Origin: Candidatus Multivoradales bacterium | Lineage (GTDB): Bacteria > Acidobacteriota > Thermoanaerobaculia > Multivoradales > J023 | Length of the DNA: 64,000 nucleotides | Reading direction: 5' to 3' | NCBI GenBank assembly: GCA_965248925.1 | Contig: CBDFLE010000006.1 | Location: 1,152,001-1,216,000, forward strand | In this document: positions 327 to 64,000 of the stretch, piece by piece | Numbering within the stretch: the stretch's first letter is position 1 | Layout of the letters: every line of letters begins with the position of its first letter | Notes under the pieces: model-generated | Seen by the model: only the letters and a program-made list of their open reading frames with translations | Database searches by the model: none | Told to the model about the DNA's origin: nothing | Program-made: the position numbers and the translations under genes

Positions 327-1427
327 ATGGAAACACAAAATCGTTCCCGCCTCGCCCTGTTCTGCGCCTTGGCGACCTTGCTTTCCCTGGTCGCCGTAGG
401 CCTGGGTACCGAGCTGCTTACCCGCCTGCTGATTCCACGGGAGGTCTTTTGGCCGATCAGCAACATCTATCGCGCGGCCGATATCTCCGCGGTTGCCTAC
501 ACCTATATGCCGAGCTTCACGGGCACTGCTTTTGGCGTCGATCTGGAAACCAACAGCTTGGGGTTTCGCGGCCCGGAATGGCGGCGCGAAAAAAGCAGGG
601 GGACCTTGAGGGTGGCGCTGATCGGCGATTCGATCGCCTTCGGCTTCGGCGTGCCTTTCGATCAAACCGCCGGCGAGCTGCTTGCCGCTGCTCTACACCG
701 TCTGGGCGGCCCGCCGGTCGAGGTGCTGAACTTCGGCATCAACGGGCACAACAGCCGGCAGCAACTCGCCGTCTTGCAACACTATGGGCTGCGCTTCGAT
801 CCCGACTTGGTCATCCTGGTACCGGCGAATAACGACCACAAACCGGCGCTGCTCGTCGACCCGGAAGGGTGGTTGCATTGGGACGGCTCGGCCAAAGAAA
901 ACACCCGCGTGGTCGACAAGTCGATCGCAAAAATCAGCTCCCCGGAGCCACCAGGCTGGATCAAGCACAGTCGCGCCCTGCTCTATTTGAGGCTTTGGCT
1001 ACGCCAGCGAGCCGCTACCGCCGGCCCGCGATCCGATCAGCTGATGCCAGCCACCGATCAGAGCGCGGATTGGATGGCGCCAACGCCGCCTGGTCCAGTC
1101 TCTACCCGCCTCGCCAACACTGTCTTTGACCCCCTGCGAGAGAGCATCGAGATGGCGCAAGGTCGCGGCATTGCGGTCGTCCTCGCCCCTTTCTGCAGCT
1201 CGCGCGACTATCGCCAGATGTTCCAGATCCTTGCCACGGAGCGGGGCGTACCGGTCTTGGAGTTGCCGACTCTGTTCCCCGAGGCCAAGAGCTGGGCCGA
1301 GTTCACAGCCAAATTCAGCCTCGGCTGGGACAGTCATCCCAACGCCGAGGCGCAGCAGCGTTTTGCCGAGGGGTTGGCCGAACGGATCGCCAGTTTGCAC
1401 TTGGACCTGGAGCAGTCTGCCGAATGA
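327..1427 (+). CDS. SGNH/GDSL hydrolase family protein, membrane-anchored (candidate O-acyltransferase or esterase)
   Basis: N-terminal TM; IGDSIAFG, NFGING, PANND and DSHPN blocks. Confidence 0.85.
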   Translation: METQNRSRLALFCALATLLSLVAVGLGTELLTRLLIPREVFWPISNIYRAADISAVAYTYMPSFTGTAFGVDLETNSLGFRGPEWRREKSRGTLRVALIGDSIAFGFGVPFDQTAGELLAAALHRLGGPPVEVLNFGINGHNSRQQLAVLQHYGLRFDPDLVILVPANNDHKPALLVDPEGWLHWDGSAKENTRVVDKSIAKISSPEPPGWIKHSRALLYLRLWLRQRAATAGPRSDQLMPATDQSADWMAPTPPGPVSTRLANTVFDPLRESIEMAQGRGIAVVLAPFCSSRDYRQMFQILATERGVPVLELPTLFPEAKSWAEFTAKFSLGWDSHPNAEAQQRFAEGLAERIASLHLDLEQSAE

Positions 1428-48571: not shown

Positions 48572-51500
48572 ATGAACCGACTCACTGAAGAGGTTCCCGA
48601 AGAAGCGTCTACGACCTGGGTCAGGGCCCGGGCTGTGGCGATCAGGATCCTCGGCCGAATCCGCCAACGGGGCCCAGTTCCGAGCCCTCTCGCCTCCGAG
48701 ATCAACTTGCTGAACGACGGCGAGATCGTCGCCGAGCGCTATCGCGTGCTGCGCCTGATCGAGCGCGGTGGTGTCGGTCAGGTATACCTGGTCGAAGATC
48801 TCGAGCTAGGTGAGAAGGTCGCCCTTAAGACCCTACGCCCGAGGTTCGCCGAGGCGCCTGAGGCGATCGAGAATTTCAGCGCGAGATTTCGTTCGCCCGG
48901 CGGGTGACTCATGAGAACGTCTGTCGGCTCTTCGATCTCGGTCGCCATCAGGCAGAGGACCCCGGTCACGAGAGCCTCTACTTCGTCACCATGGAGTTTC
49001 TCGCCGGCGAGACTCTGCGCGATCGGATTCGGCGCCGTGGCCGGCTCGAACTAGAGGAAAGTCTCGAGATTGCCAGCCAAGTCGCCCGCGGCATCCGTGC
49101 TGCCCACCGCCAAGGAGTGATCCACCGGGACATCAAGGGCAGCAATGTCCTGCTGGTCGAGCAGCCGGATGGCTCGACCCGTGCGGTGGTAACGGACTTC
49201 GGCCTGGCGCTTCAGGTTCCCAGCACCGTGGCGGGGGACACCGCGCCTCTACCCTCATGCCTCGAAGGCACTCCCCTGTTCATGGCTCCAGAGCAGGTGG
49301 TCGGAGAGGTCGTTAGCCAAGCCGCCGACATCTACTCCTTTGGGATTCTGCTCTATCACATGGTGACCGGGGGCTGGCCGTTCGAAGGCGCCACAGCGAT
49401 ATCGATGGCTCTAGCTCGTATCGAGCAGGAGCCGACGCCGCCGAGGCGTCACCTCGCGGATCTCGACCCAGGCCTCGAAGCGGTCATCCTGCGCTGTTTG
49501 GAGCGCCAGCCGAGCGCTCGCTTTCCATCGATGGAACATCTGTTAGGAGCGATCGAGCAGATCCTGCGCCCGCCAGAGGGGCAGCCGAAGGCGCGCCCGC
49601 GCGGGTGGCAGCGCTGGCCGGTTTGGGCGGCTTTCGGGATCCTGGTGCCGGCGGTGCTGGTATTGGGTTGGCTGGCATCGGGCCAGCAAGCAGAGTCGAA
49701 TGCCGTCACGGTCGAACCAGTAACAGTGCTGCCCACTGCCGAGGTGCGCCCGTCGTTGGCGATCGTCCCGTTCCGCGCTAAGGAGGAAGATCCATATCCC
49801 GAGGGGTTGGGCATTGCCCTCAGCGAGGGAATAGCCTCGTTGTTGGCCGCCGGTGAAGGTCTCCGGGTGATCAACGTCGACGACCGAGAGGAGCTGCGTA
49901 CCGAGCTGCCGCCCGTTTCTGGCTCGATCCAGGAGCTCGCCGAGATCGAGCAGATCGATGCGGCCTGGACGCTGCAGGGCAGCTTTCAGCTCCGTGGTTC
50001 TCAACTCCGCGGTACTGAATTCGGCAGTGCCGATCAGAATCTGATCTTGGCCCTCGATCTTCGTCTCGAAAGCCGTCAAGGGCAGCCAGTGGTGCACTCC
50101 TTTGCCTTGGCCGGCTCACTGGACCGCTTAGGCGAGATCATCGCTCAGGCGGGCGCTCGGGTCTGCCAAAAGTTGCGGCTGGCCTCTCCCACGGCGCTCC
50201 AGATAGAAAGTGCAAGTGTCGAGCTGCCCCATCAGACAGCGACAGCGCTGCTTTACGCTCAGGGCTTGGCGGCGCTCCGCGAGTTCGATGCGATAGCAGC
50301 CCGCGGCAAGCTCGAAGCTGCGCTCGAACAGGAGCCCGAACACCCGCTGATCCTGAACGCCTTGTCGGAAGTTCTGTCTCGCCTCGGCTACAGCCAGCAA
50401 TCAGCCCAGGTCGCCGAGCAGGCGTTTCGCCACGCCGGAGGTCTGTCGCGAGAGCAGCAGCTGGCGGTCGAAGCACGGTACCGCCTGAGGTTTGACGACT
50501 GGGGAAGAGCCGAAGAGCTCTTTCGTGCCCTGCACGAGTTCTTCCCCGACGATCTCGACTATGGCTTGAATCTCACGTCCGCCCAGGCCCGCGGTGCTCG
50601 CCTCGAGGCAGCCTTTGCCACCCTCGACAGGCTGCGGCACCTGCCGCAGCCCTGGGGGGCCGATCCGCGGCTGGATCTGGCCGAGGCCAAGATCGCGTAT
50701 TACAGCGGTGACTATCACCGCAGCCAACGATCCTCCGGGCGGGCTGTGACGGCTGCTCGCGGTTCCGGCCTGCGCCTGCTACTGGCCCGCGCTCTCGATC
50801 AGGAGGCCCTGACCAGGGTCTACACCGACAGTCCCGCGGGTCAGGTCGAGGCCCTACTCGAAGAGGCTCTCGCCCTTTATCGGCAGGTCGACCACAAGCT
50901 CGGCCAGACCGAGGCTTTGCTGACCCTGGGCGAACGTGCCAGGCAGCGGGGTGAGCTCGACCTAGCCTCGGCCTACATCCGTCAAGGGCTCGCGCTGGCC
51001 GAGGAGACCGGCAATCTGCCCTCGCAAGCGCGCGGCAAGTCCATACTCAGTATCCTCCACGACCTTCACGGGCAGCTAGCAGAAGGCCTCGCCCTCAAGA
51101 AACAGCTGCTCGAGAACTACCGCCAACGCAACGTCAGGCAAGGAGCGGCGGTCACGCTGGAGAATATCGGCATCTCGTTGTTCAAGATGGGGCGACCCGA
51201 GCAGGCTTTGGAGTACTTCCTGCAAGCGGCCGAGCAGTTCGATCAGATCGGCGACCAAATCGGAATGGCATGGGCGCCATACCATGCTGGACGGGTTTGG
51301 CTCGACCTGGGCGATCTCGAATCAGCCAGCAACCGTCTTGAGCAAGCACGCCAGGCTGCTGTCGAGCATTCTGAAGGGGGGCTCGTAGATGCCACCGAGT
51401 TGGAGCTGATCCGCATCGCCGCAGCGCGGAAAGATGAGGCGGCGGCCGAGCGCCGACCTCGGGCGCTGATCGAGGTGTTCAAGAGCCACGATCAGGCCTT

Positions 51501-52062
51501 GCTGGTCGCCGAGGCTCGCCTTCTCCTCGCCCAGATCTTGGCCAGCCGTGCCAAGTATTCTCAAGCCAGCAAGCTGGCCAGCGAAGTGCTGACTTTCTCC
51601 GATCTGGAAGGCATCGAGCACACCGCCGTGGAGGCACTGACGGTCGTAACCCAGGCGGGGCTCGCGGACCACAATGGTAGCCTGGGCGACTTGCCTACCC
51701 TGCTGAAAAAGTGCCACGCTCTAGAGGCGCGCCTCTCCGGCCTCGAGCACCGAAAGATCGTCTTGCTCGCCCAGGTCGTGGTGGCGCGATGCTCCCTGTC
51801 CGGCGGCAGCCCACCGGCCCAAGTAACTGCCGAAGCTCGCCGTATTGCCACCGAAGCCGGAACCCTGGGGCTTGCCGAACCGCGCCTCGAAGCGGCCTGT
51901 CTCGAAGCGGAAGTCCTCGCCTCCATGGACGCCTCCAGGGTCGGAACGGTGTCACCCTGCCCGGGTCTCGAGGCCAGCCCAGGAGTCGGTGCAGGGGTCG
52001 GTGGAGCAGCGGCTAGTGCGGCGAGCGATTCCTCGGATCGATTGGACGATGTCAAGAGATAG
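48572..52062 (+). pseudogene. Ser/Thr kinase - TM - TPR protein, split by a 1-nt deletion near 48878 (pseudogene or sequence error)
   Basis: GGVGQVY..VALK in frame 1; THENV..HRDIKGSN..DFG..FMAPE in the next frame; adding one base restores F-x-REISFARRVTHEN. Confidence 0.8.
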
Positions 52063-54380: not shown

Positions 54381-54684
54381 AATAGGTACCCGGGCAATAG
54401 GGGCAATAGGTGCCAGGCACATTATGCGGCGGGCACATTATGCGGCGGTAGACCAAGCCGGGCAATAGGTGCCGGGCAATAGGTGCCAGGCACATTATGC
54501 GGCTCGCCAAGATCTTCGGCAGCAGCCGACCGCAGCTGGTAGACCAAGCAGCCGGGCAATAGGTACCCGGGCAATAGGTGCCAGGCACATTATGCGGCGG
54601 TAGACCAAGCCGGGCAATAGGTGCCGGGCAATAGGTGCCAGGCACATTATGCGGGTGCCAGGCACATTATGCGGGCACATTATG
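54381..54684 (+). repeat. Third cluster of the REP-like repeat (4 full plus several half copies, nested duplications)
   Basis: Full copies at 54405, 54478, 54573, 54630. Confidence 0.9.
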
Positions 54685-54687
54685 CGG

Positions 54688-55342
54688 CGGTGGCCTGCCC
54701 TCCCAGGGGCGGCAAGAGACCTGGCGAGATGTCGGTGTAGAGCGCCCTGACGGCCTCGAAAAGGTGGTCGTCGAACGCGGCTTAGAGCCCAAGAGCCAGG
54801 TGCGGATCAACTGGTTTGGTGACGCCCCCTGGAGTCGCCAGGAGCATCACGTGCTGATCACCTTCAGCAGCGCCCTGGGGAATCGCTTGCGCGAGGTGCT
54901 GCGCGAAGATCTCGGCGGCACTTACGGCGTCTCCGTCGGCGGTCAATTGAGCCGGCGACCTCGCTCGACCTACGGTTTTCAGATTGGTTTTGGCTGTTCT
55001 CCGGAAAACGTCGACGAACTCACCGAGGCGGTTTTCGCCGAGATTCGCCGAGTCCGCACCGCAGGTCTCGACCCGAAGTACCTGGAAAAAGCCAAAGAAG
55101 CCCAACGCCGCCGCCGCGAAACTCAGCTGCGGGAAAACGGCTCTTGGCTAGCGGCCCGCAGAACCTACCTGACCTTCGACACCGACCCGCGGCTGCTGCT
55201 GCGCTACGACGAACTGGTCGATGGCGTCACCAACCAAGACCTGCAAGAAGCCACTGAGCGCTATCTGTCGCTCGATCACTATGTGCTGGGAGTCCTGCTG
55301 CCCGAGGCCAGCGCAGAAAAAAGCACCGAGCCTGTTTCTTGA
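54688..55342 (+). pseudogene. Diverged duplicate of the pqqL 3' end
   Basis: Collinear with 43567..44221 (offset 11121), scattered substitutions; no start codon or catalytic domain. Confidence 0.92.
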
Positions 55343-55398: not shown

Positions 55399-56235
55399 TC
55401 ACTCGTGAGCGAGCAGTATCTCGAGCACGATCGGCTCGCCCGCAGGATTGACGGCATAGACTCCGATCTCAGCAGCCACTTGAGTTTCGGTCTCAAGCAC
55501 CAGACCTTTGGCACCGGCGGCGCGTTGCGCCAGCTGAACCCCAGCAACCAGCCGGGGAGGCCCGCCGTGAGTCTCAGGCACGGGCGCTCTGCTGCTCGGC
55601 ATGCTCTGCTCAAGGCTCTCGACATCCGGCGCCAAGATCACCACCAGACGCTCGGTCCCGCGACGGTGATCGAAGCGAAACCACGCATCGGGCCCTGGCA
55701 AGATGCGATCGATGCCGGCTCGCATGGTGCGATCAACAAGCCCCTTGTGCGGGGCCGGGAAGAGCACCGACGCGGCGCCTGCCGATAGTTGCAGCAACGA
55801 AATCACCCCATCGCGATTGCTTTCGCAGTGCAGCCGAATGCGCTCACCACTGCGAAACGTCCGCGATGGACTGACCTCTATAACCTCGGTCACCCCGTCC
55901 TCGACCAACTCCACCCAACATCTCAAGCCAAGGTTTCGGGGCCGGTGGACGACGGGCTGAGCGCTCAGCTCGCTGCCTGCCGGTGGCTCGGTGCGAGGGT
56001 GCGCGACTCTCTCCCCTTTCACATCGCTGGCCGGAGCCAGCGAAACCAGCTCCCCCACGCCGCCATCGGGAGCAAAGAACAGCTCTTTGGCACCAGCAGC
56101 GGAGGCCGGGGCCGGCTGGGACTCAGCAGCGGTCAACCCGGCCGGCACCCAGCCGGCGAGCAACAGCCCAAAGACCCACGCTTGAATGACGAGAGCGCCC
56201 ATCCCCACCTTCTGAATTGATGTCTTGGGTCCCAC
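55399..56235 (-). CDS. Exported DUF4384-domain protein
   Basis: Signal peptide; AKELF, FRSGERIRL..SNRDG..LFP..WFRFD..GTERL. Confidence 0.8.
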   Translation of the reverse strand: MGPKTSIQKVGMGALVIQAWVFGLLLAGWVPAGLTAAESQPAPASAAGAKELFFAPDGGVGELVSLAPASDVKGERVAHPRTEPPAGSELSAQPVVHRPRNLGLRCWVELVEDGVTEVIEVSPSRTFRSGERIRLHCESNRDGVISLLQLSAGAASVLFPAPHKGLVDRTMRAGIDRILPGPDAWFRFDHRRGTERLVVILAPDVESLEQSMPSSRAPVPETHGGPPRLVAGVQLAQRAAGAKGLVLETETQVAAEIGVYAVNPAGEPIVLEILLAHE

Positions 56236-56246
56236 AATTACCTCCC

Positions 56247-57566
56247 TTAGCGCCGCTTAGCGTCAAAGTTCTGAATGCCCTCGATAATCCCTGAGCTGAC
56301 CTCGGCACGGGCCAGTTCGACCAAACCCATGGGCGAAGTGTCCAATGCCACCTGATCAGCCGATTTGATGGCCGACAAGATGATCTCGTCCGACAGCCCA
56401 GCCCTGCTCATCTCGATCACCGCCGCATTGGTCAGAGCCGGCTCGGCCTTCGAGCCCAGACCTTTGGCACCACTCAGGCGGCCACCCAGCGGTCGAGTGC
56501 TGGCCACGGCATTCGCACTCGCCGCGTCGGCATCGCTAAATTCAATCACCCGCTGAAACTGCTCCAGGGCCGAGCGCGCTCGATCGATCGGCGCCATCGC
56601 CTGTTTGCGCTCGGCGTCAAGACTCATCAATCCCTTGGCCATGGCCACCAACCCGTTGCCCTTGAATCCCACGGAAAAGAGCTTCTCTCCCGGGTTGAAC
56701 TGAATCGCCCGTTGATAGTGAGCGGTGGATTCTTCGAGATAGCGGATCGAGATCGCGGCCTCCTCTGCCAAGTAGCCAAGAGCCTCGTAGGCCACGCCCA
56801 GGGAGTACTCGCGATAGGACTCTTCTTTCGGCTTCGACCGCGGAGGCTGTGCCTCGAGGGCCTCCAAATAGGGATTCCAAAGTCCTCCACGGGCCAGATT
56901 GCGCAGCTCCTTGAGGCTACCCCCGGGCAGCAAAACACCGATGCTCTCGCGAGTCGGTGTCAAACCGCGGGCAATTTCTGCGACGGTGGAGTCGATCGAT
57001 CGGCGCTCTAGCTCAGCGCGGTTGGGAGCACCGCGCCCTTCTTCGAAGTCTTCGCTCCACTGCCGGCTGATGGTCTCCGCCGCCAACACTGACGCACTGC
57101 GCTTGTCAGTGACTTTGTAGGTCACGGCGAAAACATGGGAGAGCACCTTGAATTTGATCCGTTTGTCGACCAGGACGTACTGTTGCCGCCCTTTCGAGTC
57201 CTTGCCCGCCGGCACACTCTTCTTGACCGTTCGAGTCTCCCACCCCTCGCTGTAATCGTTGTCCACTAGCGCCACCTCGACCACCGTATCGGGACCTCGC
57301 TCATCGAGGATTAGACGGGAATCATTGCCCAACAACTCGCTCTCGAGCAAGGTCACCAGCTGCTTCTGCAGCGGGTCGCCAGCGTGCGACGAATCCGCTC
57401 TCACGTCGACGCGGGTCCCCGCAATATAGACATCCGCTGGCCTGACACGGTCGAGCTGTACGGTCGCCTTCTTCATCCCGAAACCCTCTTTGGAGGCCAG
57501 TTCCGCTACGCCGAGGAGCGGTAGCAAACAGAAAATAGATAGGGTTCGAATAACCGTTTTCATCAA
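56247..57566 (-). CDS. Exported TPR-like hypothetical protein
   Basis: Signal peptide; YSLGVAYEALG..YQRAIQFNP; C-terminal LTNAAVIEMSRAGLSDEII repeat; GAGGA RBS. Confidence 0.7.
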   Translation of the reverse strand: MMKTVIRTLSIFCLLPLLGVAELASKEGFGMKKATVQLDRVRPADVYIAGTRVDVRADSSHAGDPLQKQLVTLLESELLGNDSRLILDERGPDTVVEVALVDNDYSEGWETRTVKKSVPAGKDSKGRQQYVLVDKRIKFKVLSHVFAVTYKVTDKRSASVLAAETISRQWSEDFEEGRGAPNRAELERRSIDSTVAEIARGLTPTRESIGVLLPGGSLKELRNLARGGLWNPYLEALEAQPPRSKPKEESYREYSLGVAYEALGYLAEEAAISIRYLEESTAHYQRAIQFNPGEKLFSVGFKGNGLVAMAKGLMSLDAERKQAMAPIDRARSALEQFQRVIEFSDADAASANAVASTRPLGGRLSGAKGLGSKAEPALTNAAVIEMSRAGLSDEIILSAIKSADQVALDTSPMGLVELARAEVSSGIIEGIQNFDAKRR

Positions 57567-57604
57567 GCATCCTCCATCTAGGAATGAGTTGGTTTGGAAA
57601 CTGC

Positions 57605-58840
57605 TCAGGGAGCCTGAAACAGGGGCACGACACCGAGGCGCAGGTCGGCTACGCCGCCACTCGGCTGTATTTCTGGGCGCTGAGTGAAGCCGCGATCGCG
57701 AACCACTGCCTGGTTGACCCGGTCGGCAAGCCGAGCAAAGGCTTCCCCCAAGGTCGGCGGCACCGAGCCCTGCAAACTATCGATCAAGTAGTGGGTAAAG
57801 TAGCTATTGCCGAGTTCTTCACTCTCCCACGAGCGCTCGTCGGCGCGGCTTGAGGTGACCACGTAAGTTCCTTCACCCGAAAGGAAACGCTCGGCCGTGC
57901 GCTGGTCGATGCCCGCCCCTTCCACCACCAGCTGCTTCGCCCCACGGGCCAATGCCTGGCCGCTGAAGCAGCTGTCGAGGAAAGTCACCACCCGGCGAGC
58001 CTGCAGCAAAGCCACCTTCGCCGCCAATGCCTGATACTCGATAGCATCCACCCATATGCTGTCGAGAAAGGTGTCGTGGGTTACCAAGTAGCCAACCCCT
58101 TTAAGGCCCTGGGACTTCTGATACGGCGAGCCATGACTGCTCAAATAGAGGACCACCAGATCGTCCTCCGCAGCGACCAGGATCAGTTGCTGCAGAGCAC
58201 TCAGGATCTTCGCTCGGGTCGCATCTTGGTCGGTCAGCAGAGTGACTGAGCCGGCCGGGAAATGGGCTTGCTGCACCAGGAAGTTGGCAAAGTCGGTAGC
58301 ATCCTTGGCGGTGAATCGCAGCTGTGGAATCGCGCTGTCGAGAAAACTGCCGATGCCGACCACCAAGGCAAACTTGCGCCGCACCGGCCCCAGCACCGGT
58401 GCGGGCGGCTCGGCTCCGGGACAGATCATCTGCTCGACCCCACTAAAGGCGGCCCGCTTTTTGAAGCTCTCTGCCTTGCGCCCATCGCCAAGGGCCAGAG
58501 CGCTGCAGTGGGACAGCAGCCACAGCTGGCCCAGGCTTGGGCACAATTCCCGAGCTGTTCCCAGCCGAACCAGAATCTGCCGGTGATCGGTATCCGACTG
58601 GCGTGGCATCGCCGCTACTTCTTCGACCATCTGCCGCGCACGGTTGCAGGCAGCGTTAACTGCCATCAAGGGCTGGCTCACCATTCCTAGCGCGCAGCCC
58701 AGCGCCAGCAACAACAATGACACCCGCCGCTGGCTGGCAGGTCCACGAGAGCCACGACCCACCCGGCCGCTGGCCAGCTCAGGTGCGTTTGCTGAGGGCA
58801 CGGAAGCAGGACGCCTTGCGTATGGGATTGAAGTCATCAT
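57605..58840 (-). CDS. Caspase-family (C14) protease with signal-peptide-like N-terminus
   Basis: KFALVVGI, LTDQDAT, YLSSHG (His), FLDSCFSG (Cys), FTHYL, QRP; start codon uncertain. Confidence 0.9.
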   Translation of the reverse strand: MMTSIPYARRPASVPSANAPELASGRVGRGSRGPASQRRVSLLLLALGCALGMVSQPLMAVNAACNRARQMVEEVAAMPRQSDTDHRQILVRLGTARELCPSLGQLWLLSHCSALALGDGRKAESFKKRAAFSGVEQMICPGAEPPAPVLGPVRRKFALVVGIGSFLDSAIPQLRFTAKDATDFANFLVQQAHFPAGSVTLLTDQDATRAKILSALQQLILVAAEDDLVVLYLSSHGSPYQKSQGLKGVGYLVTHDTFLDSIWVDAIEYQALAAKVALLQARRVVTFLDSCFSGQALARGAKQLVVEGAGIDQRTAERFLSGEGTYVVTSSRADERSWESEELGNSYFTHYLIDSLQGSVPPTLGEAFARLADRVNQAVVRDRGFTQRPEIQPSGGVADLRLGVVPLFQAP

Positions 58841-59477
58841 TGCTCTCGAGATCCTTGAGTACCTGGGATAAGTAAGGGGACTGCTCACGGCGCAACGCCG
58901 CCAGGCCACGGCCGAGGTGTTCGCACACGCGGTCGACCCGCCCCTCGCGAGCGAGCAACAAAGCTAGGTTGTAATGCGCCAGCCACAGATCGGGGTCGTG
59001 GGTAAGAGCCTTCTCGTAGGCCAGGTGCGCTTCTCGGGCGCGACCCAAGGCACCCTCGGCGGCAGCCAATTCGGACCACGAAAGGGCGTCGTCAGGGGCC
59101 AGGCGCGCCGCCTGAGCGAAGGAATCGCGGGCCCGCTGATGGCGCCCCTCTTGCGCCGCCTGACGACCGCGGCGGCGCCAGGAGTCAACCTCGCGGACTG
59201 CGGTGAATGAGTCGTCTTCAGACTCTTGCTCGATCTTGGTGCCCTCGCCCGGTGGGGTCACTCCCTCCTGCCCGCTCCAGAAAGCCACCAAACTCGCAAC
59301 GCCCACCACCGCCAGCACCACCGCAAATAACAGCCCGCGGCGAAAGCCACTCGTCGGCCGCTGCCAATCGTTCTCGCCACAGTTCGGACAACCTTCCAGG
59401 GGTGGTGGCGATGGCGCCCCCTGGCCACAGCAACGACAGTTCAGCCCGAAGGTAGGAATCTGAGTTACATCAACCAA
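58779..59477 (-). CDS. Zn-ribbon - TM - TPR protein
   Basis: CRCC..CPNC, TM GLLFAVVLAVVGVASLVAFW, TPRs (AHYNLA), TPR-end DDFNPIR. Confidence 0.8.
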   Translation of the reverse strand: MVDVTQIPTFGLNCRCCGQGAPSPPPLEGCPNCGENDWQRPTSGFRRGLLFAVVLAVVGVASLVAFWSGQEGVTPPGEGTKIEQESEDDSFTAVREVDSWRRRGRQAAQEGRHQRARDSFAQAARLAPDDALSWSELAAAEGALGRAREAHLAYEKALTHDPDLWLAHYNLALLLAREGRVDRVCEHLGRGLAALRREQSPYLSQVLKDLESNDDFNPIRKASCFRALSKRT

Positions 59478-61842
59478 GGTTCTCTCCCGCCGACGGCAAC
59501 GAGCGCGAGCCACGCCTGCCACGGCCTAGCTTCTTGCGGCGGCTGGGATCGACTCCGTAGTCCGCCAGATTCAAAGTGGTATTGCTGCAGCGATCAAGAT
59601 GGTCGAGGGGATCGTGACGGCGCTCTATCTCGGAGGACGGCAGCTGCTGGCGAATCGCTTCGATGCGCTCCTGGACCGCCCGCAGCTCATCATCGTCGTC
59701 GTCTGGATCGATCCCGTCCGCCAGCAGTTTGGCTTTGCGCTGGCGCAGCAGGTCGAGTTCCTCGGTGAGGTCCCTGGCCAAATCGCGCTCGGCATCGACC
59801 TGCGCCTGCAACTGCTTGAGGCGAGCATCTCGGCGAATCTGGCCGGCGCCGATCTGCAGCTGAGTTTCCTGCTCTACCTCCGCAGTCAGGACCCGCACGC
59901 TCTGCGACTCACTGAGGGTTTGTGCACGCTTGAAACCGGTAAAAGCGATCGACAAGCCAAAGCTCGCGGCGATGGTCTCGCAGGTGGTGTCAAGAACCTC
60001 CTGCAAGGTCATGTGATCGCCCCGGTCGACATATTGCAGAAACTCACTCGGCATGGTGGCTAAGGTCGACTCGATCTCTTCACCCAACACCCGCTTGATC
60101 TCAGCGATCTCCTCTTCCGGTGAATCAAAGCGTCGCGATCTGAAAACATGCCAGCCTTGGCGATGAACCCCTAGAACTTCCACATTAGTAGTCAGCCGCA
60201 CCGTGTCCCGCTGGCCCTGGCTGCGCAGCGGATAGACCTCGACACTGAGCGGATGGAGCCGCGACATCAACGCCTCGACCCGCTGGGTGAGTTCACTCTC
60301 AAGGGGTTTGATGACGACCCGAACACCCTCCATCGCGAAATCCTTGCTGAGTAACTCGATGATCTCTTGCCGCAAAAGGTCAGCCACCGGCTTCTCAGTC
60401 GACCGATCCGAGCGGAAAAGACGCATGTAGACCCGTTCCGGACTCATTCCGTGCAAATGCCTGGCGACCTCGGCACTGACCTTTTTTTCGATGTCTTCAC
60501 TGAGCCGAGAGGCAGCCTCGGGATCGAGGTAGGCACTCAGTACGGGAGCGAAGATGTCGTTGATCTGACCGTTGACAACAATTCCTAACCGCGCTTCGAC
60601 CCGGGGATCCAAGGTGGCGAAGGTCTCTTCTATTTCGAGCGCGATCCCTTCCTTCCAACGCAGGGGTTCGAGTTGTGGAATTGTCGTCAACTGCTGCACT
60701 GAGTAACCTACCTGGGCCACTTGTTCCTCCATGGCCAACTTGAGGCGCTCAGCACCGATGGTTTGGCCGGGGGCGAACTCGACCAGCAGATCGCGATAGG
60801 TCATCTCGAACATCTGGCTGCGAGTCACCGCTTGGATACGCTCAGAAAACCAGGTGTTGATATCATCAATACCGGCGATACGCAGCTTGCCTAGATCCCG
60901 CAGTTCGAGCTGCACGACGTGGCTGACTTCCACCTTATGCACCGTGCCGCGGATGTCGCAGGTCACCGGATAGTGCTCACGCAGATGCTGGGGCGGCACC
61001 TCGGTGGCGGTCTGCGCCTCCAGCCGCAAGAATCCCAAGCGCCGGCCGGCGGGCACCAGCAGGTGCTGATCAAGATGTTGCTGCAGCCGCTCCCGCAAGC
61101 GGGTTCGCAAGTGGAAGATCAACTCGTGCAGACTCACATCCTTGGCCACGAACAGCCGGACCGCTTCGCTCACCAGCCGCTGCCACTCCTCACCTTCAGC
61201 ACCATGGCGCGCCACGGCGGCCGAATCTTCGACTTCGAGCTGAACTTCCACGTTGATCTCGATCACCTCGTCGGCGTCGCGAGCGTGAACCCGGAGGCGA
61301 TCTATGTTGAGATCGATGCGCTGTGGACGCACTTCGCCGCGAGCGCGGATCTGTACTTGTAGGATCAGCCCGAGTTCGCTGTCGGCAAGTTGCCCGAGAT
61401 GCTGCTCCAGCCGGCTGATCAACTGCGGGAAACGCTGGAAGACCTCAGACGGCGAGCCTTGCTTTTGCACGAAACTCTCGAGCTGCCTTTGCAACCAGCG
61501 ATCCAGCGCCACGCCGGGCCCCTCTCGACCCTGGCACAAGTTCGCCACCAGCCGAGCCTCCCCACCCGCTGGACAGCGGGCCCGGTAGACCATCTCCAGC
61601 TCCAGGCGCTCGGCAAAGCTGGCACCTTGGATTTCGCAGCGGGGACCCGGAGCCTCCGCTGCCAGCGAGCGGCTGAACACTCGGAAGTATCGCAGGTTCT
61701 TGCCCAACGTGAACCGAGGTTTGCGGTCGTAAGTGCGCCCGGTCTGGTTATCGATAACCACCAAGCGGCCACCGTCACATGGCGCGGCGGCTTTACTGGC
61801 ATCGATCTCGTATAGCACCTGGGCGAGAGCGTTTCTAGTCAT
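59470..61842 (-). CDS. Hypothetical protein with about five tandem SPFH/Band-7-like units and C-terminal coiled coil
   Basis: 790 aa; recurring beta-beta-alpha-alpha-Gxxh pattern; stop/start overlaps on both sides; fold assignment is inferred. Confidence 0.65.
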   Translation of the reverse strand: MTRNALAQVLYEIDASKAAAPCDGGRLVVIDNQTGRTYDRKPRFTLGKNLRYFRVFSRSLAAEAPGPRCEIQGASFAERLELEMVYRARCPAGGEARLVANLCQGREGPGVALDRWLQRQLESFVQKQGSPSEVFQRFPQLISRLEQHLGQLADSELGLILQVQIRARGEVRPQRIDLNIDRLRVHARDADEVIEINVEVQLEVEDSAAVARHGAEGEEWQRLVSEAVRLFVAKDVSLHELIFHLRTRLRERLQQHLDQHLLVPAGRRLGFLRLEAQTATEVPPQHLREHYPVTCDIRGTVHKVEVSHVVQLELRDLGKLRIAGIDDINTWFSERIQAVTRSQMFEMTYRDLLVEFAPGQTIGAERLKLAMEEQVAQVGYSVQQLTTIPQLEPLRWKEGIALEIEETFATLDPRVEARLGIVVNGQINDIFAPVLSAYLDPEAASRLSEDIEKKVSAEVARHLHGMSPERVYMRLFRSDRSTEKPVADLLRQEIIELLSKDFAMEGVRVVIKPLESELTQRVEALMSRLHPLSVEVYPLRSQGQRDTVRLTTNVEVLGVHRQGWHVFRSRRFDSPEEEIAEIKRVLGEEIESTLATMPSEFLQYVDRGDHMTLQEVLDTTCETIAASFGLSIAFTGFKRAQTLSESQSVRVLTAEVEQETQLQIGAGQIRRDARLKQLQAQVDAERDLARDLTEELDLLRQRKAKLLADGIDPDDDDDELRAVQERIEAIRQQLPSSEIERRHDPLDHLDRCSNTTLNLADYGVDPSRRKKLGRGRRGSRSLPSAGENLG

Positions 61843-64000
61843 GGCGAGGTCCCTTTCTCCTGATCGCTTGGCGGCAGGCAGCGTCGAGCCGGCCCAATGA
61901 GGTCTTGCGCGCCGAGAGCCGATCGATGGTCTCGTTGAGAGCGAGCGAGCTATCACCGCGGTGGCGACGCTGACGGCGGATTTCGATGCGAATGCGGCGT
62001 TGGCTCCGGCGGAGAAAACTCCAGTGGCGCCGCGCGGCGCCGAGCTGGGGACCGGTCATTGAGTCTGCTAGAGCGGCGGGCAGCCGGCGCAGCAGGCGGC
62101 CCGCAGCCGCGGCCAATGGCGAGTCTTTGGCGACTACGGCTTCGAGACGGATCCACCAATCGGCCACCACCACCGCCTGGCGCAGCTCGAAGCTGCCGAA
62201 ACGCTCTCCTTGCCCCCAGTCCTCGAGCCATTGCTGGCCAAGATCTGCCTTGAGTCCACGGTGGCCAGGGCCGATCAACCACTCCTGGGTAGCAGATCGA
62301 ATCCAAGCCCGGTGCAGCTCTACCTCCAGGCCACGGCGCACCGCCTGGTGGAGTTCCCGATGTCCGGCTTGGTCGATCGCCGGTCCACCAACCAGGGCGC
62401 GGTCGAGGGCATCCGCAGTGAGTCGATCGAGAGTTGCTTGCCAGACAGCCGCAACCTGCGACTGAAACATGGCGCCGAGCAAGCGCCGAAGAGCCACCGG
62501 TTCGTCACCCTCCTCGCGGGCCAACAGAATCGCCAACAGCGAATCAAGACCCTCCCCTCGCTCAACCTGGTTTGGACCCGGTTCGGTTACAACGCTCTTT
62601 CCCTCGAGGACCGACTCGAAGGCCAACTGCACCAAAACCTGAGTGGCACCGGCCACCAGACGAGCCGACCGCTGAGTCGCGGAACTCGCGTCTTGCAGCC
62701 AATCGAGCAACTCGTAAGTCACTTGCTCGAGGTCGCCCTGCGGATGACGGCAATAGGCCAAGACATCGCCGAAGGCAGCCAGTGTGCTGCGATCCTCGAC
62801 CGACAGCCCCCCTACTGCGTGCTGCGGCACCAACAGCAACCGCCCTCCGGCAAACGCCTTGCGCCAGCCCTCTAGAGCGTCGAAGCCTTTGGTGAAACGC
62901 AGACGGCGAGTGAGGTCGCGGTGGATCGCTGGCTGATTCTGCTGTAGCTCGCTGAGAAAGGGACCGACCGTGCGTCGCGCTCGCCGCCGCTTGAGTAGCG
63001 CACCGACCAGCAGCTCGAGAGCCCCTATCCGCCGCCAGCCGCCAGCGACATCCGGCGTAGTGCTGAGAATCAGATGCACCTTGGCCAACCAGGCCTGGCC
63101 AAAATGTTCCGGGTATGCGTCGGCAGTAGCGGCCACCAATTCCGACAAGGACTCGCGAATCTCGTGGCTTGGATCTGCCAGCAAATAAGCCGGTATATGT
63201 TCGAGCTGCTCAAGGAAGAAGACATGTCCTTGGGTCCAGAAAAACTCTCGCAACTCCACTCGCAGGCGCGGATCTCGGTAGTCCAATGCTGGGGATTTGC
63301 GCCGTCCCTGACCCGGACGGCCAGCCGCAGTTCCGGGCGGCAGGACAATCAGTCCGCAAGCCTGCGAAATCCGCTGACGCTCTTTCACCCACACATCAAG
63401 CAACGAGCGCCGCTCCTCGCTCCACGCCACACCAGCCTCGAACTTGACCTCGCGTTCCTCTTGCCTACTCTCGAGCAGGCTCTTGAGCAGGCGATCCGAA
63501 TCCTTGACCGACAGGCCGGGAAAGAAGGTGACGACGAAATGTACCGCCGCCTCGAGGTAACGTTCGGGATCCAAGAGTCCTTCGAGACCGATATCCGCCT
63601 GACGAGATCGCTTCAGCTCAGCGATGTCACACTTGGCCTGCTTCTCGACCTCCTCAGCGAAACGCTCTTGACGCAGCAAGCTGTCGCAGATTTCGAAGAA
63701 TTGCTGGTCCTCGGCCGGCCAGCGCCCTTGGCGGCGTTGCTCGACCACCTGCTCCTGCAGCTGGCGCCAGTGGTGCGGATGGGCGCGCTGTAGTCGCGGG
63801 GGTAAGAAGTCAATCCATGCAAGGTCAGCACTCGATCGCGTTTCACCGACCCTTCCGGGGGTCGTGGCGACAATCCACAACCACTTTTTCTTGCGCAGGG
63901 CACCAGCGATCTGCGCCCGACTCTGCTCGCTGGCGCCAACCAAGGAGGTGAGAAAGGGCTCCGCGGCGGCGCTTCGGGCATCGACAACGATCAGCTTGCG
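61835..64000 (-). CDS. Large STAND-like/helical-repeat hypothetical protein; 5' end outside the window
   Basis: Frame open to the window edge (RKLIVVDA, Walker-B-like); long all-alpha C-terminal region. Confidence 0.6.
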   Translation of the reverse strand, partial: RKLIVVDARSAAAEPFLTSLVGASEQSRAQIAGALRKKKWLWIVATTPGRVGETRSSADLAWIDFLPPRLQRAHPHHWRQLQEQVVEQRRQGRWPAEDQQFFEICDSLLRQERFAEEVEKQAKCDIAELKRSRQADIGLEGLLDPERYLEAAVHFVVTFFPGLSVKDSDRLLKSLLESRQEEREVKFEAGVAWSEERRSLLDVWVKERQRISQACGLIVLPPGTAAGRPGQGRRKSPALDYRDPRLRVELREFFWTQGHVFFLEQLEHIPAYLLADPSHEIRESLSELVAATADAYPEHFGQAWLAKVHLILSTTPDVAGGWRRIGALELLVGALLKRRRARRTVGPFLSELQQNQPAIHRDLTRRLRFTKGFDALEGWRKAFAGGRLLLVPQHAVGGLSVEDRSTLAAFGDVLAYCRHPQGDLEQVTYELLDWLQDASSATQRSARLVAGATQVLVQLAFESVLEGKSVVTEPGPNQVERGEGLDSLLAILLAREEGDEPVALRRLLGAMFQSQVAAVWQATLDRLTADALDRALVGGPAIDQAGHRELHQAVRRGLEVELHRAWIRSATQEWLIGPGHRGLKADLGQQWLEDWGQGERFGSFELRQAVVVADWWIRLEAVVAKDSPLAAAAGRLLRRLPAALADSMTGPQLGAARRHWSFLRRSQRRIRIEIRRQRRHRGDSSLALNETIDRLSARKTSLGRLDAACRQAIRRKGPRHD

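Follow-up and report, generated by a model that had tools for sequence, protein, structure and literature searches.

In the window, a 64,000-nucleotide stretch of genome G000 (contig C6, positions 1152001–1216000), we studied the region 55399–64000, where a preliminary description had read six co-oriented genes as one operon joining a STAND-like protein, a multi-SPFH protein, a zinc-ribbon transmembrane TPR protein, an exported caspase, a TPR protein and a DUF4384 protein (here g2 to g7, in that order). Comparison with other loci indicates that the conserved unit is not these six genes but a trio composed of a protease, g2 and g3, to which different modules are attached, and that the six window genes are the tail of a longer operon whose own protease of this kind, a caspase that we call g1, is encoded beyond the window edge. 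The earlier statement that the combination matches no named system still holds, as neither g2 nor g3 is covered by a family of Pfam, NCBIfam or PADLOC, the last of these offering no defence-system model for either, and no description of a system joining a protease, a STAND-like protein and a multi-SPFH protein was found in the open literature, subscription journals lying outside the search. We propose for the locus an envelope-coupled, composite system of protease signalling that serves in defence or damage signalling, a reading whose chances of being right we consider even.

The region 55399–64000 contains six minus-strand open reading frames (ORFs), g7 to g2, which lie 11 or 38 nucleotides apart or otherwise overlap, and the proposed co-orientation and packing are therefore real. 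Only the C-terminal 721 codons of g2 fall inside the window; the genome sequence carries the remainder of its 988 residues past the window edge, where g1 adjoins g2 on the 5′ side at a distance of eight nucleotides. The start of the operon is thus outside the window, and extension upstream, which the preliminary description had advised, both completed g2 and brought to light the cytoplasmic caspase missing from that description. A 19-residue hydropathy scan of g1 to g7 found no hydrophobic segment in g1, g2 or g3, a single one in g4 at residues 63–81, and N-terminal ones in g5, g6 and g7, which bears out the suggested string of products across cytoplasm, membrane and periplasm; conflict-type parts are among them.

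The trio was recognized from g3 and its neighbours in 38 loci besides the window, comprising L006 (genome G176), five further genome loci and 32 metagenome loci. Genome contigs were scanned with a six-row g3 alignment (37 pattern matches, five confirmed) and metagenomes with a 21-row subset of g3 sequences sharing one conserved octapeptide (42 pattern matches, 32 confirmed); the loci are biased toward g3 members that keep this stretch because they were selected through it, and three metagenome contigs appear to be near-duplicates (L016 of L012, L025 of L024 and L045 of L044). A g2-family gene lies upstream of g3 in all 22 metagenome loci with at least 862 nucleotides of upstream DNA, overlapping g3 or separated from it by at most 42 nucleotides in 19 of them, and in 7/7 genome loci, window included. 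The other ten metagenome loci are unjudgeable on this point, nine having 272 or fewer upstream nucleotides and one having no called ORF. Sixteen metagenome loci have a full gene upstream of g2, and in 14 of them the gene directly 5′ of g2 encodes a protease (seven CHAT and seven Trypsin_2, the trypsin being preceded by a Trypco1 gene in six of its seven loci). The same is true of all seven genome loci, where the protease is a C14 caspase in three (the window, L008 and L009) and CHAT in four (L006 and L010 to L012). The exceptions are L019, without an identifiable protease, and L029, which has a pentapeptide-CHAT gene downstream instead.

The whole ten-gene order, from the sigma factor described below to DUF4384, is kept in L008 and L009 only (2/38), whose g3 is 55% identical to that of the window; every other locus couples protease-g2-g3 to a different module, and both proteases and envelope modules are swapped between loci. 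The association of the SPFH/STAND pair with the caspase/TPR/DUF4384 block is therefore found elsewhere, in these two loci, while the notion of the six genes as a whole or conserved unit falls, given that it recurs in just these two close relatives. Neighbours of the trio in metagenome loci include Trypco1, CHAT-SAVED, DO-GTPase and AAA_35 genes. In L022 (1–6259), g3 is fused to a C-terminal CHAT protease in a 1300-residue protein, and g2 is separated from g3 by a toxin–antitoxin-looking UPF0175/DUF3368 pair and one more small gene.

A phmmer search of 1.84 billion representative proteins yielded 465 relatives of g3 at E ≤ 1e-3, mostly 730–800 residues in length; 383 of them pass E ≤ 1e-10 and 172 pass E ≤ 1e-30. 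Within the phylum of the window, the g3 profile matches only 2 of 401 sampled genomes (371 of them at least 90% complete), namely G000 and G176, which belongs to the same order; a single-sequence search of these genomes added one marginal match.

The multi-SPFH label given to g3 has no support from Pfam, in which g3 finds zero matches at E ≤ 0.1, Band_7 (PF01145) included, but it is right nonetheless, judging from the structural model, the fold matches, the profile links between repeats and the Atlas clusters. The probable start of g3 is codon 39 of the ORF (61842), matching the 790-residue form in the protein database. Its AlphaFold2 (AF2) model, built from an 83-row alignment (predicted local distance difference test (pLDDT) 88.4, predicted template modelling score 0.66), comprises five successive strand-plus-helix units followed by a disordered tail after a predicted long, coiled-coil-like helix at 643–708, of the kind found in ring- or cage-assembling proteins. 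In a Foldseek search of the PDB, the model matched prohibitin, stomatin, HflK/C, flotillin and erlin, mostly at a probability of ~1.0, and vault protein at 0.75. VIA-align superposes residues 280–393 on the SPFH domains of prohibitin, stomatin and HflK/C with Z 11.7–14.9 and a root-mean-square deviation of 1.9–2.8 over ~104 residues. This direct fold search covers one repeat, and the other four are tied to it by hhalign and by their repeating secondary-structure pattern: R1–R2 align at E 1.4e-7 and R2–R3, R2–R4, R2–R5 and R3–R4 at E 4e-5 to 1e-4, with R1–R3, R1–R4, R1–R5 and R3–R5 weak. In the ESM Atlas, g3 scores 0.93 to a mostly Acidobacteriota cluster of 751-residue proteins, 14% of whose members carry Band_7, and also reaches SPFH and vault-shoulder clusters.

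Among the best structural matches of g3 are the HflK/C–FtsH entries 7wi3, 9cz2 and 9paw, and the FliL entry 7sgn was also matched. Since HflK/C folds cage a protease, these matches favour the main rival to our proposal, which we regard as unlikely: that the locus performs housekeeping envelope quality control or stress signalling, the SPFH scaffold restraining a protease at the membrane as HflK/C does FtsH, with g5, g6 and the DUF4384 protein processing or clearing envelope proteins and no role in conflict. The rival also gains from the ordinary, syntenic chromosomal surroundings, from the want of PADLOC matches for g2 and g3, and from the exported caspase–g6 pair, which is fairly common (g6 family in 16/401 genomes) and also stands alone. 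Against it, g3 has neither an N-terminal membrane anchor nor any hydrophobic 19-residue segment, unlike HflK/C-type scaffolds, and the occurrence of g2-g3 in 2/401 genomes is very patchy, unlike that of a housekeeping system. Moreover, the swapping of three unrelated protease families, the co-varying motif described below and the links to Pepco, CHAT-SAVED and ZorAB-like proteins are hallmarks of conflict systems.

For g2, "STAND-like" is a fair description of the modelled shape, not of family membership or chemistry. The AF2 model from a 20-row alignment has a pLDDT of 67.5 overall and a higher one across residues 190–650. Foldseek ranks SAMD9 (1.8e-5), Apaf-1, Avs3/4/5, CED-4, plant NLRs and ORC/Cdc6 highest, the top matches spanning E 1.8e-5 to 1e-3, and residues 174–390 align to AAA+ and NB-ARC/CED-4/SAMD9 domains at Z 8–9.2, a range that the tool calls common. 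The model also predicts helical or winged-helix-type modules after the NTPase-like domain, followed by a repeat-type arm. The fold part of the earlier label thus stands with moderate support, and its family part does not: a Walker A motif (G-x4-G-K-S/T) is found at the expected place after the first strand in 0/20 aligned g2-family members, the three pattern matches in the family falling elsewhere in the proteins, and g2 matches zero families in Pfam, NCBIfam and PADLOC (E ≤ 0.1 or 0.01), with no NACHT, NB-ARC or other STAND profile. On these two grounds we rejected g2 as a true STAND NTPase. Word-index searches with the single g2 sequence and with a seven-row alignment returned g2 alone, its low-complexity N-terminus having probably consumed the search words, and the g2 relatives used here were gathered solely as neighbours of g3 relatives. 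In trypsin-type loci the g2 proteins are shorter and lack the alpha/beta domain altogether.

Protease and g2 also share a short motif. The g1 caspase matches Peptidase_C14 (E 4e-17, 63.1 bits against a cutoff of 21.4) with intact H-G and D-S-C motifs, and its last residues form a ten-residue string nearly identical to residues 148–157 of g2, accompanied in the g1 tail by an apparent second, degenerate half-copy. Across the 7.98-Mb genome, the coding pattern of the six-residue core of the motif has two matches, one within g1 and one within g2, and its reversed control has none. Other loci have the same relation between protease tail and g2 N-terminus with different motif sequences. Over 19 pairs we compared the last 70 residues of the protease with the first 230 of g2 by their best ungapped BLOSUM62 segment: the cognate partner ranks first of 19 in 10 pairs, against about one expected by chance, with mean scores of 45 for cognate and 28.5 for non-cognate pairs (standard deviation 6.8), and in 12 of 17 loci the cognate match exceeds four control segments from the same locus (two of g2, two of g3). 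In trypsin-type loci the shared stretch is longer (16–70 residues) and helical-looking. A complex prediction for g1 with g2 residues 125–520 scored 0.00 with controls absent, a value that bears neither way on binding. To judge from the sequences, the motif-paired g1 and g2 resemble NLR/effector adaptor or amyloid-signalling pairs, with amyloid and plain strand-to-strand contact both candidate modes, and g1 is the likely output of g2-g3.

In the trypsin-type loci L024, L030, L038, L040 and L041, g2 starts with a long charged helical-looking region that it has in common with the C-terminal tail of the trypsin. The ARC6-IMS and VanY neighbours of trypsin-type loci hint at cyanobacterial hosts.

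At the other end of the trio, the product of the first co-oriented gene 3′ of g3 contains one or more hydrophobic segments in 19 of the 25 metagenome loci that have such a gene, which argues that the occupant of this slot is a working partner. In 13 of the 25 it is a protein of ~470–540 residues with three to five hydrophobic segments at MotA-like conserved positions, followed, wherever the contig continues, by a single-transmembrane protein of 190–276 residues; Pfam MotA_ExbB matches seven of the 13, and OmpA three of the proteins that follow. The genome loci L006 and L010 to L012 have the same arrangement of MotA_ExbB and OmpA genes after g3 (4/4). PADLOC gives these stator proteins of sister loci weak ZorA (E 1e-5 to 6e-8; 14–30 bits) and ZorB (down to 5e-14) matches. 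The remaining occupants include ARC6-IMS with VanY (L030, L038), a transmembrane protein kinase (L020), CHAT-SAVED (L036), small proteins without a Pfam family (L025, L040, L041) and, in L022, the g3–CHAT fusion. Several genes after g3 or after the stator pair, such as CHAT-SAVED in L036 (3148–5031), a membrane Ser/Thr kinase in L020 (2628–4466) and pentapeptide-repeat CHAT proteins in L029 (14402–16609) and L032 (14267–16516), suggest further input or output modules.

The same slot bears on the relay that the preliminary description had put forward, from cytoplasm to periplasm, in which g2-g3 sense, g4 passes the signal outward and periplasmic g5 destroys envelope proteins. Gene order does run from cytoplasmic through membrane to periplasmic products, g5 is by its motifs an intact protease that is predicted to be periplasmic, STAND-like proteins are usually cytoplasmic sensors and the g2 fold matches Avs, Apaf-1 and SAMD9, and the cytoplasmic zinc ribbon of g4 could receive a signal. 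An outward relay leaves g1, with its g2-matched tail, roleless, and g2 lacks a nucleotide switch. In most relatives, furthermore, the position of g4 to g7 is held by the MotA/MotB-like pair with no periplasmic enzyme, and outward relay therefore cannot be the general mechanism of the family. We consider it quite unlikely for the window as well.

What occupies the slot in the window is an envelope block that recurs with the trio in L008 and L009. The zinc-ribbon transmembrane TPR reading of g4 is sound, as g4 has TPR_2 (4.5e-12) and TPR_1 (1.4e-9) matches above the Pfam cutoff and a single transmembrane helix after a CxxC...CxxC pair whose cysteines are kept in the L008 and L009 orthologues. 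The exported caspase g5 likewise proved correct, with a Peptidase_C14 match (E 2.6e-21, 76.8 bits against a cutoff of 21.4) and both the H-G and D-S-C motifs; a signal-like segment at ORF residues 66–84 is followed by a Cys-containing helical region and a caspase domain at 178–415. Its true start is probably internal, the ORF start lying too far upstream, and its orthologues are 71–72% identical from residue 83–88 onward. On the NCBIfam model caspase_w_EACC1, g5 scores 97.6 bits, under the cutoff of 140, and PADLOC and NCBIfam otherwise add only generic caspase matches for the window proteins. For g7, DUF4384 (PF14326) is above the gathering score (E 8.3e-7, 29.4 bits against 27); its hydrophobic segment covers residues 10–28, and the L008 and L009 orthologues are 46–47% identical. 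The N-terminal hydrophobic segments of g5 to g7 are kept in all orthologues examined except g7 of L009, where the segment falls below the scan threshold.

The TPR label fares less well for g6, which has no Pfam family above cutoff (TPR_11 is sub-threshold at E 0.061) and for which a PDB profile search gives weak, TPR-like matches at residues 193–333 only. The protein consists of an N-terminal domain of unassigned fold, this TPR-like centre and a C-terminal double short repeat. In the Atlas it scores 0.97 to a 1379-member, mostly Acidobacteriota cluster. A CsgG-like assignment, raised by a CsgG+TPR Atlas cluster (0.93), stays no more than a lead, as the PDB profile search gave only TPR-like matches. 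The C-terminal ~65 residues of g6 (56247–56450) hold two copies of a ~25-residue motif that is kept across the family alignment, and some genomes match g6 through this part alone.

The g6 family is commoner than g3, occurring in 16/401 genomes of the phylum. In six of the better-scoring g6 loci from the 15 other genomes, a g5-like exported caspase stands beside the g6-like gene in four (L060, L062, L063 and L064), and g2 or g3 in none (0/6). The exported caspase with g6, plus DUF4384 and TPR-CHAT in some cases, is thus a module of its own, which in this lineage is joined to protease-g2-g3. Within these loci, L064 (2632–11333) encodes an 802-residue caspase–DUF4384 fusion, a g6-like protein, an exported caspase and a 1037-residue TPR-CHAT protein, and L061 (3406–9721) has two tandem g6 paralogues beside a 975-residue NACHT-domain protein on the opposite strand.

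Such independence raises the alternative that protease-g2-g3 and g4 to g7 are functionally separate modules on one transcript, as caspase and g6 do without g2-g3 in 4/6 g6 loci and g2-g3 does without the caspase–g6 block in 36/38 other loci. We think this very unlikely, since the reading frames of g3 and g4 overlap, L008 and L009 retain the full gene order at a protein identity of 55%, and the slot after g3 holds a membrane protein in 19/25 metagenome loci.

Upstream of g1, across a spacer of 424 nucleotides, lie a TPR-CHAT protease, an anti-sigma factor and an extracytoplasmic function (ECF) sigma factor (66209–70238; L002 5210–9239), in an order kept in L008 and L009. The spacer contains a terminator-like hairpin and, ~90 nucleotides 5′ of g1, a two-block element; the two closest relatives keep this element but not the remaining spacer. 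A sigma-70 promoter scan of the spacer found none; the two-block element may be a promoter of the ECF type, and no clear copy of it was seen 5′ of the sigma gene itself. Protease-controlled anti-sigma factors are known from CRISPR-associated systems. In the housekeeping alternative, the sigma pair would induce the operon under envelope stress, and the adjoining of an ECF sigma and a ZAS-type anti-sigma factor in three genomes, together with the conserved promoter-like block, speaks for it. Coordinates of the main features are collected in the table.

Table. Coordinates of the operon, its upstream genes and the domains, repeats and motif copies discussed in the text. Positions above 64000 lie beyond the window and are window-equivalent (window = L002 + 60999).
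Feature	Coordinates	Strand	Description	Basis
g7	55399–56235	-	exported DUF4384 protein, 278 residues	Pfam and hydropathy
g6	56247–57566	-	exported 439-residue protein, family without Pfam model	Pfam, PDB profiles, hydropathy
g5	57605–58909	-	exported C14 caspase, ORF of 434 residues	Pfam and hydropathy
g4	58779–59522	-	zinc ribbon (CxxC...CxxC), one transmembrane helix and periplasmic TPR; ORF of 247 residues, start uncertain	
g3	59470–61842 (ORF to 61956)	-	790-residue cytoplasmic protein with five SPFH repeats; ORF of 828 residues	
g3 SPFH-like repeats R1–R5	residues ~45–170, 172–280, 282–393, 396–516, 526–642			AF2 model
g2	61835–64000 in window, on to 64801	-	988-residue STAND-shaped scaffold without P-loop	
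g2 predicted disordered acidic region	residues 1–174		holds adaptor motif at 148–157	AF2 model
g2 predicted alpha/beta domain	residues 180–330		five strands	AF2 model
g2 predicted helices	residues 333–443			AF2 model
g2 predicted small beta unit	residues 447–508			AF2 model
g2 predicted helical repeats	residues 512–982			AF2 model
Shared motif, g2 copy	64331–64360	-	g2 residues 148–157	sequence comparison
Shared motif, g1 copy	64819–64836	-	g1 tail	sequence comparison
g1	64810–65784	-	cytoplasmic C14 caspase, 324 residues, beyond window	
Terminator-like hairpin and conserved promoter-like block	65872–65955	-	spacer 5′ of g1, beyond window	
TPR-CHAT protease	66209–68905	-	898 residues, CHAT E 8.7e-56, beyond window	
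Anti-sigma factor	68902–69663	-	253-residue membrane protein with HxxxCxxC anti-sigma-type motif, beyond window	
ECF-type sigma factor	69660–70238	-	beyond window	

On the plus strand beside the operon, a 235-residue ORF (54635–55342) matches only the inactive C-terminal domain of M16 peptidases, with no catalytic half, and may be a gene fragment or a miscalled start. Farther away, a large Ser/Thr protein kinase with TPR repeats (48904–52062, plus strand) matches the kinase profile from position 56, so that translation may in fact begin 5′ of the ORF start as listed.

The analysis shows the gene order, the compartments, the folds (that of g2 with moderate support), a trio that stays constant, a motif that co-varies between protease and g2, and a membrane protein encoded next to g3, and it is upon these that we build a mechanism for the composite protease-signalling system. 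Through beta-strand or amyloid-like templating, the shared motif would act as a homotypic adaptor that brings protease molecules to g2. As do other SPFH proteins whose C-terminal helix is long, g3 may assemble into a large ring or cage under the membrane, linking g2 to the membrane module, which would be a MotA/MotB-like, ZorAB-like stator in most relatives and g4 with periplasmic g5, g6 and g7 here. An envelope disturbance, such as phage entry or wall damage, would then be passed by the membrane component to g3-g2, whereupon g2 would cluster the protease, leading to activation by proximity and cleavage of its targets. In trypsin variants the obvious target would be the neighbouring Pepco pore toxin, with cell death as the outcome. 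The operon is probably regulated by the neighbouring set of ECF sigma, anti-sigma and TPR-CHAT, unless that set is one of its outputs or a target. The direction from envelope to cytoplasm is the more likely one because of the analogy with the stator-coupled variants.

Several points weigh against this mechanism. We infer the binding of g1 to g2, the oligomerization of g3 and the link between g3 and the membrane protein. The cognate motif is weak or failing in 9/19 pairs, and L008, the closest relative tested, ranks 16/19, showing a loose pattern of similar form by eye only. The match of g2 to STAND/AAA+ folds is middling (Z 8–9.2) and its model moderate (pLDDT 67.5); with the alpha/beta domain missing from trypsin-type g2 proteins, a STAND-like switch cannot be the universal mechanism. 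The envelope module of the window recurs with g2-g3 in two close relatives only, and the neighbouring ECF sigma and anti-sigma genes are also compatible with ordinary envelope-stress signalling. As to a defence role, g2 and g3 lack PADLOC matches, g3 relatives are absent from 72,556 plasmids and from the scanned viral contigs, and the locus sits in no obvious defence island, its neighbours being a kinase, a dipeptidase, RlmL and hydrolases in a block syntenic with relatives.

A bolder version of the proposal, which we offer tentatively and would sooner expect to be wrong than right, is that protease-g2-g3 lies at the heart of a large and as yet unnamed family of immune or cell-death systems coupled to the membrane. 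Here a cage built beneath the membrane by the five-repeat SPFH protein would relay an envelope signal, received by a ZorAB-like stator or, in the window, by the zinc-ribbon transmembrane TPR protein with the periplasmic caspase, to a nucleotide-free STAND-shaped scaffold that activates caspase, CHAT or trypsin proteases through prion-like templating of the matched tail motif. If true, bacteria would have here an equivalent of apoptosome or inflammasome activation that works without ATP.

Recognition of the system would give names to two sizeable unannotated families, g3 (at least 465 clusters at 50% identity) and its constant partner g2. A new modular system of this kind would join SPFH scaffolds, STAND-like hubs and stator-type envelope sensors, themes hitherto studied apart. 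The matched tail motif provides a testable handle on how stand-alone caspases are recruited and activated in bacteria, and, should it template like an amyloid, the known range of this mode of signalling would grow to include Acidobacteriota as well as effectors of the caspase and trypsin types. Ready experimental entry points are offered by the variants that have a Pepco toxin or ZorAB-like stators.

Among known systems, amyloid-signalling pairs (fungal HET-s type, bacterial BASS, Bab/Agp) are alike in having adjacent genes whose effector tail motif is matched near the N-terminus of the partner and differs between pairs. In BASS-type NLR/effector pairs, the C-terminal motif of the effector is reported to equal the N-terminal motif of its partner, with CHAT among the effectors (10.1101/2020.01.06.895854; 10.1101/2024.11.07.622273). 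The motif studied here is likewise more alike within than between pairs (10/19 ranked first, 12/17 above controls). In the effector tail here, there appear to be two half-repeats where g2 has a single copy. Unlike such pairs, g2 has no NACHT or NB-ARC match and no Walker A, its motif lies ~150 residues in, within a long acidic disordered region, there is an extra obligatory partner in g3, and the trypsin variants share a helical-looking stretch of 45–70 residues rather than a short beta motif.

With Zorya, sister loci share MotA-like proteins with a long cytoplasmic extension and OmpA/MotB-like proteins beside soluble cytoplasmic partners, together with the weak ZorA and ZorB profile matches; ZorAB itself is described as a motor-like 5:2 complex whose tail reaches far into the cytoplasm (PMC11890865). 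The ZorA matches (14–30 bits) may reflect general MotA similarity only. In contrast to Zorya, the window lacks genes for MotA and OmpA, none of ZorC, D, E, F and G is there, and the partners are a protease, g2 and g3, without PADLOC models of their own. We rejected membership of Zorya, as a Zor/PADLOC scan that covered the six window proteins, g1 and TPR-CHAT returned no Zor match, and the sister loci have no other Zor proteins.

The iSTAND ternary systems are described as an inactive STAND-like core with caspase or trypsin, Trypco partners and peptidoglycan-binding or transmembrane modules (PMC7159879, Kaur et al. 2020), and that description ties effectors to the core by a shared adaptor, the effector-associated domain (EAD), most similar between neighbouring genes (PMC7159879). 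The inactive STAND-like core, caspase or trypsin peptidases, Trypco partners, peptidoglycan-binding or transmembrane modules and adaptor-linked effectors are common to both. Here, on the other hand, the adaptor is a short linear motif and not a folded EAD, g2 has no Pfam family at all, and the multi-SPFH partner has no counterpart in as much of the iSTAND description as was compared (PMC7159879). No MoxR or vWA gene was found among the neighbours scanned at the window locus or among 83 metagenome neighbour proteins, and iSTAND membership was rejected.

Pepco/Trypco1–EACC1 modules come close in another respect, Trypco1–trypsin pairs lying directly before g2-g3 in six metagenome loci and g5 scoring on the EACC1-type caspase model. 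Pepco/Trypco is reported to be a protease-activated pore toxin released by proteolysis, and the proteases of protease-effector modules are described as fused to sensors (10.1101/2025.11.14.688446). The same logic here would run from sensor to protease to cleavage of a latent toxin. The differences are that the protease here has a gene of its own, with the motif as its putative tie to g2, and that the window has no Trypco or EACC1 gene; membership of the EACC1-caspase group was rejected, as g5 stays at 97.6 against 140 bits and the genes 5′ of g5 and of g1 are the zinc-ribbon transmembrane TPR protein and TPR-CHAT. g2 might be among the "20 uncharacterized" sensor types of that work.

SPFH scaffolds, finally, share with g3 the succession of SPFH fold and long helix seen in ring- or cage-forming members. 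FliL is reportedly an SPFH-fold partner around the flagellar stators (MotAB), and the stator-type channel of sister loci recalls FliL with MotAB, just as the protease partner recalls HflK/C with FtsH. Unlike these scaffolds, g3 carries five tandem repeats per chain, has no anchor or signal and no Band_7 match, and is always paired with g2. Taken together, the locus works like a blend of Zorya, EACC1-caspase, iSTAND and STAND systems while lacking the defining feature of each. Its kind appears to be already known, that of modular protease-based conflict or signalling systems with adaptor-coupled effectors, and its g2-g3 core pair appears to be an undescribed addition to that kind.

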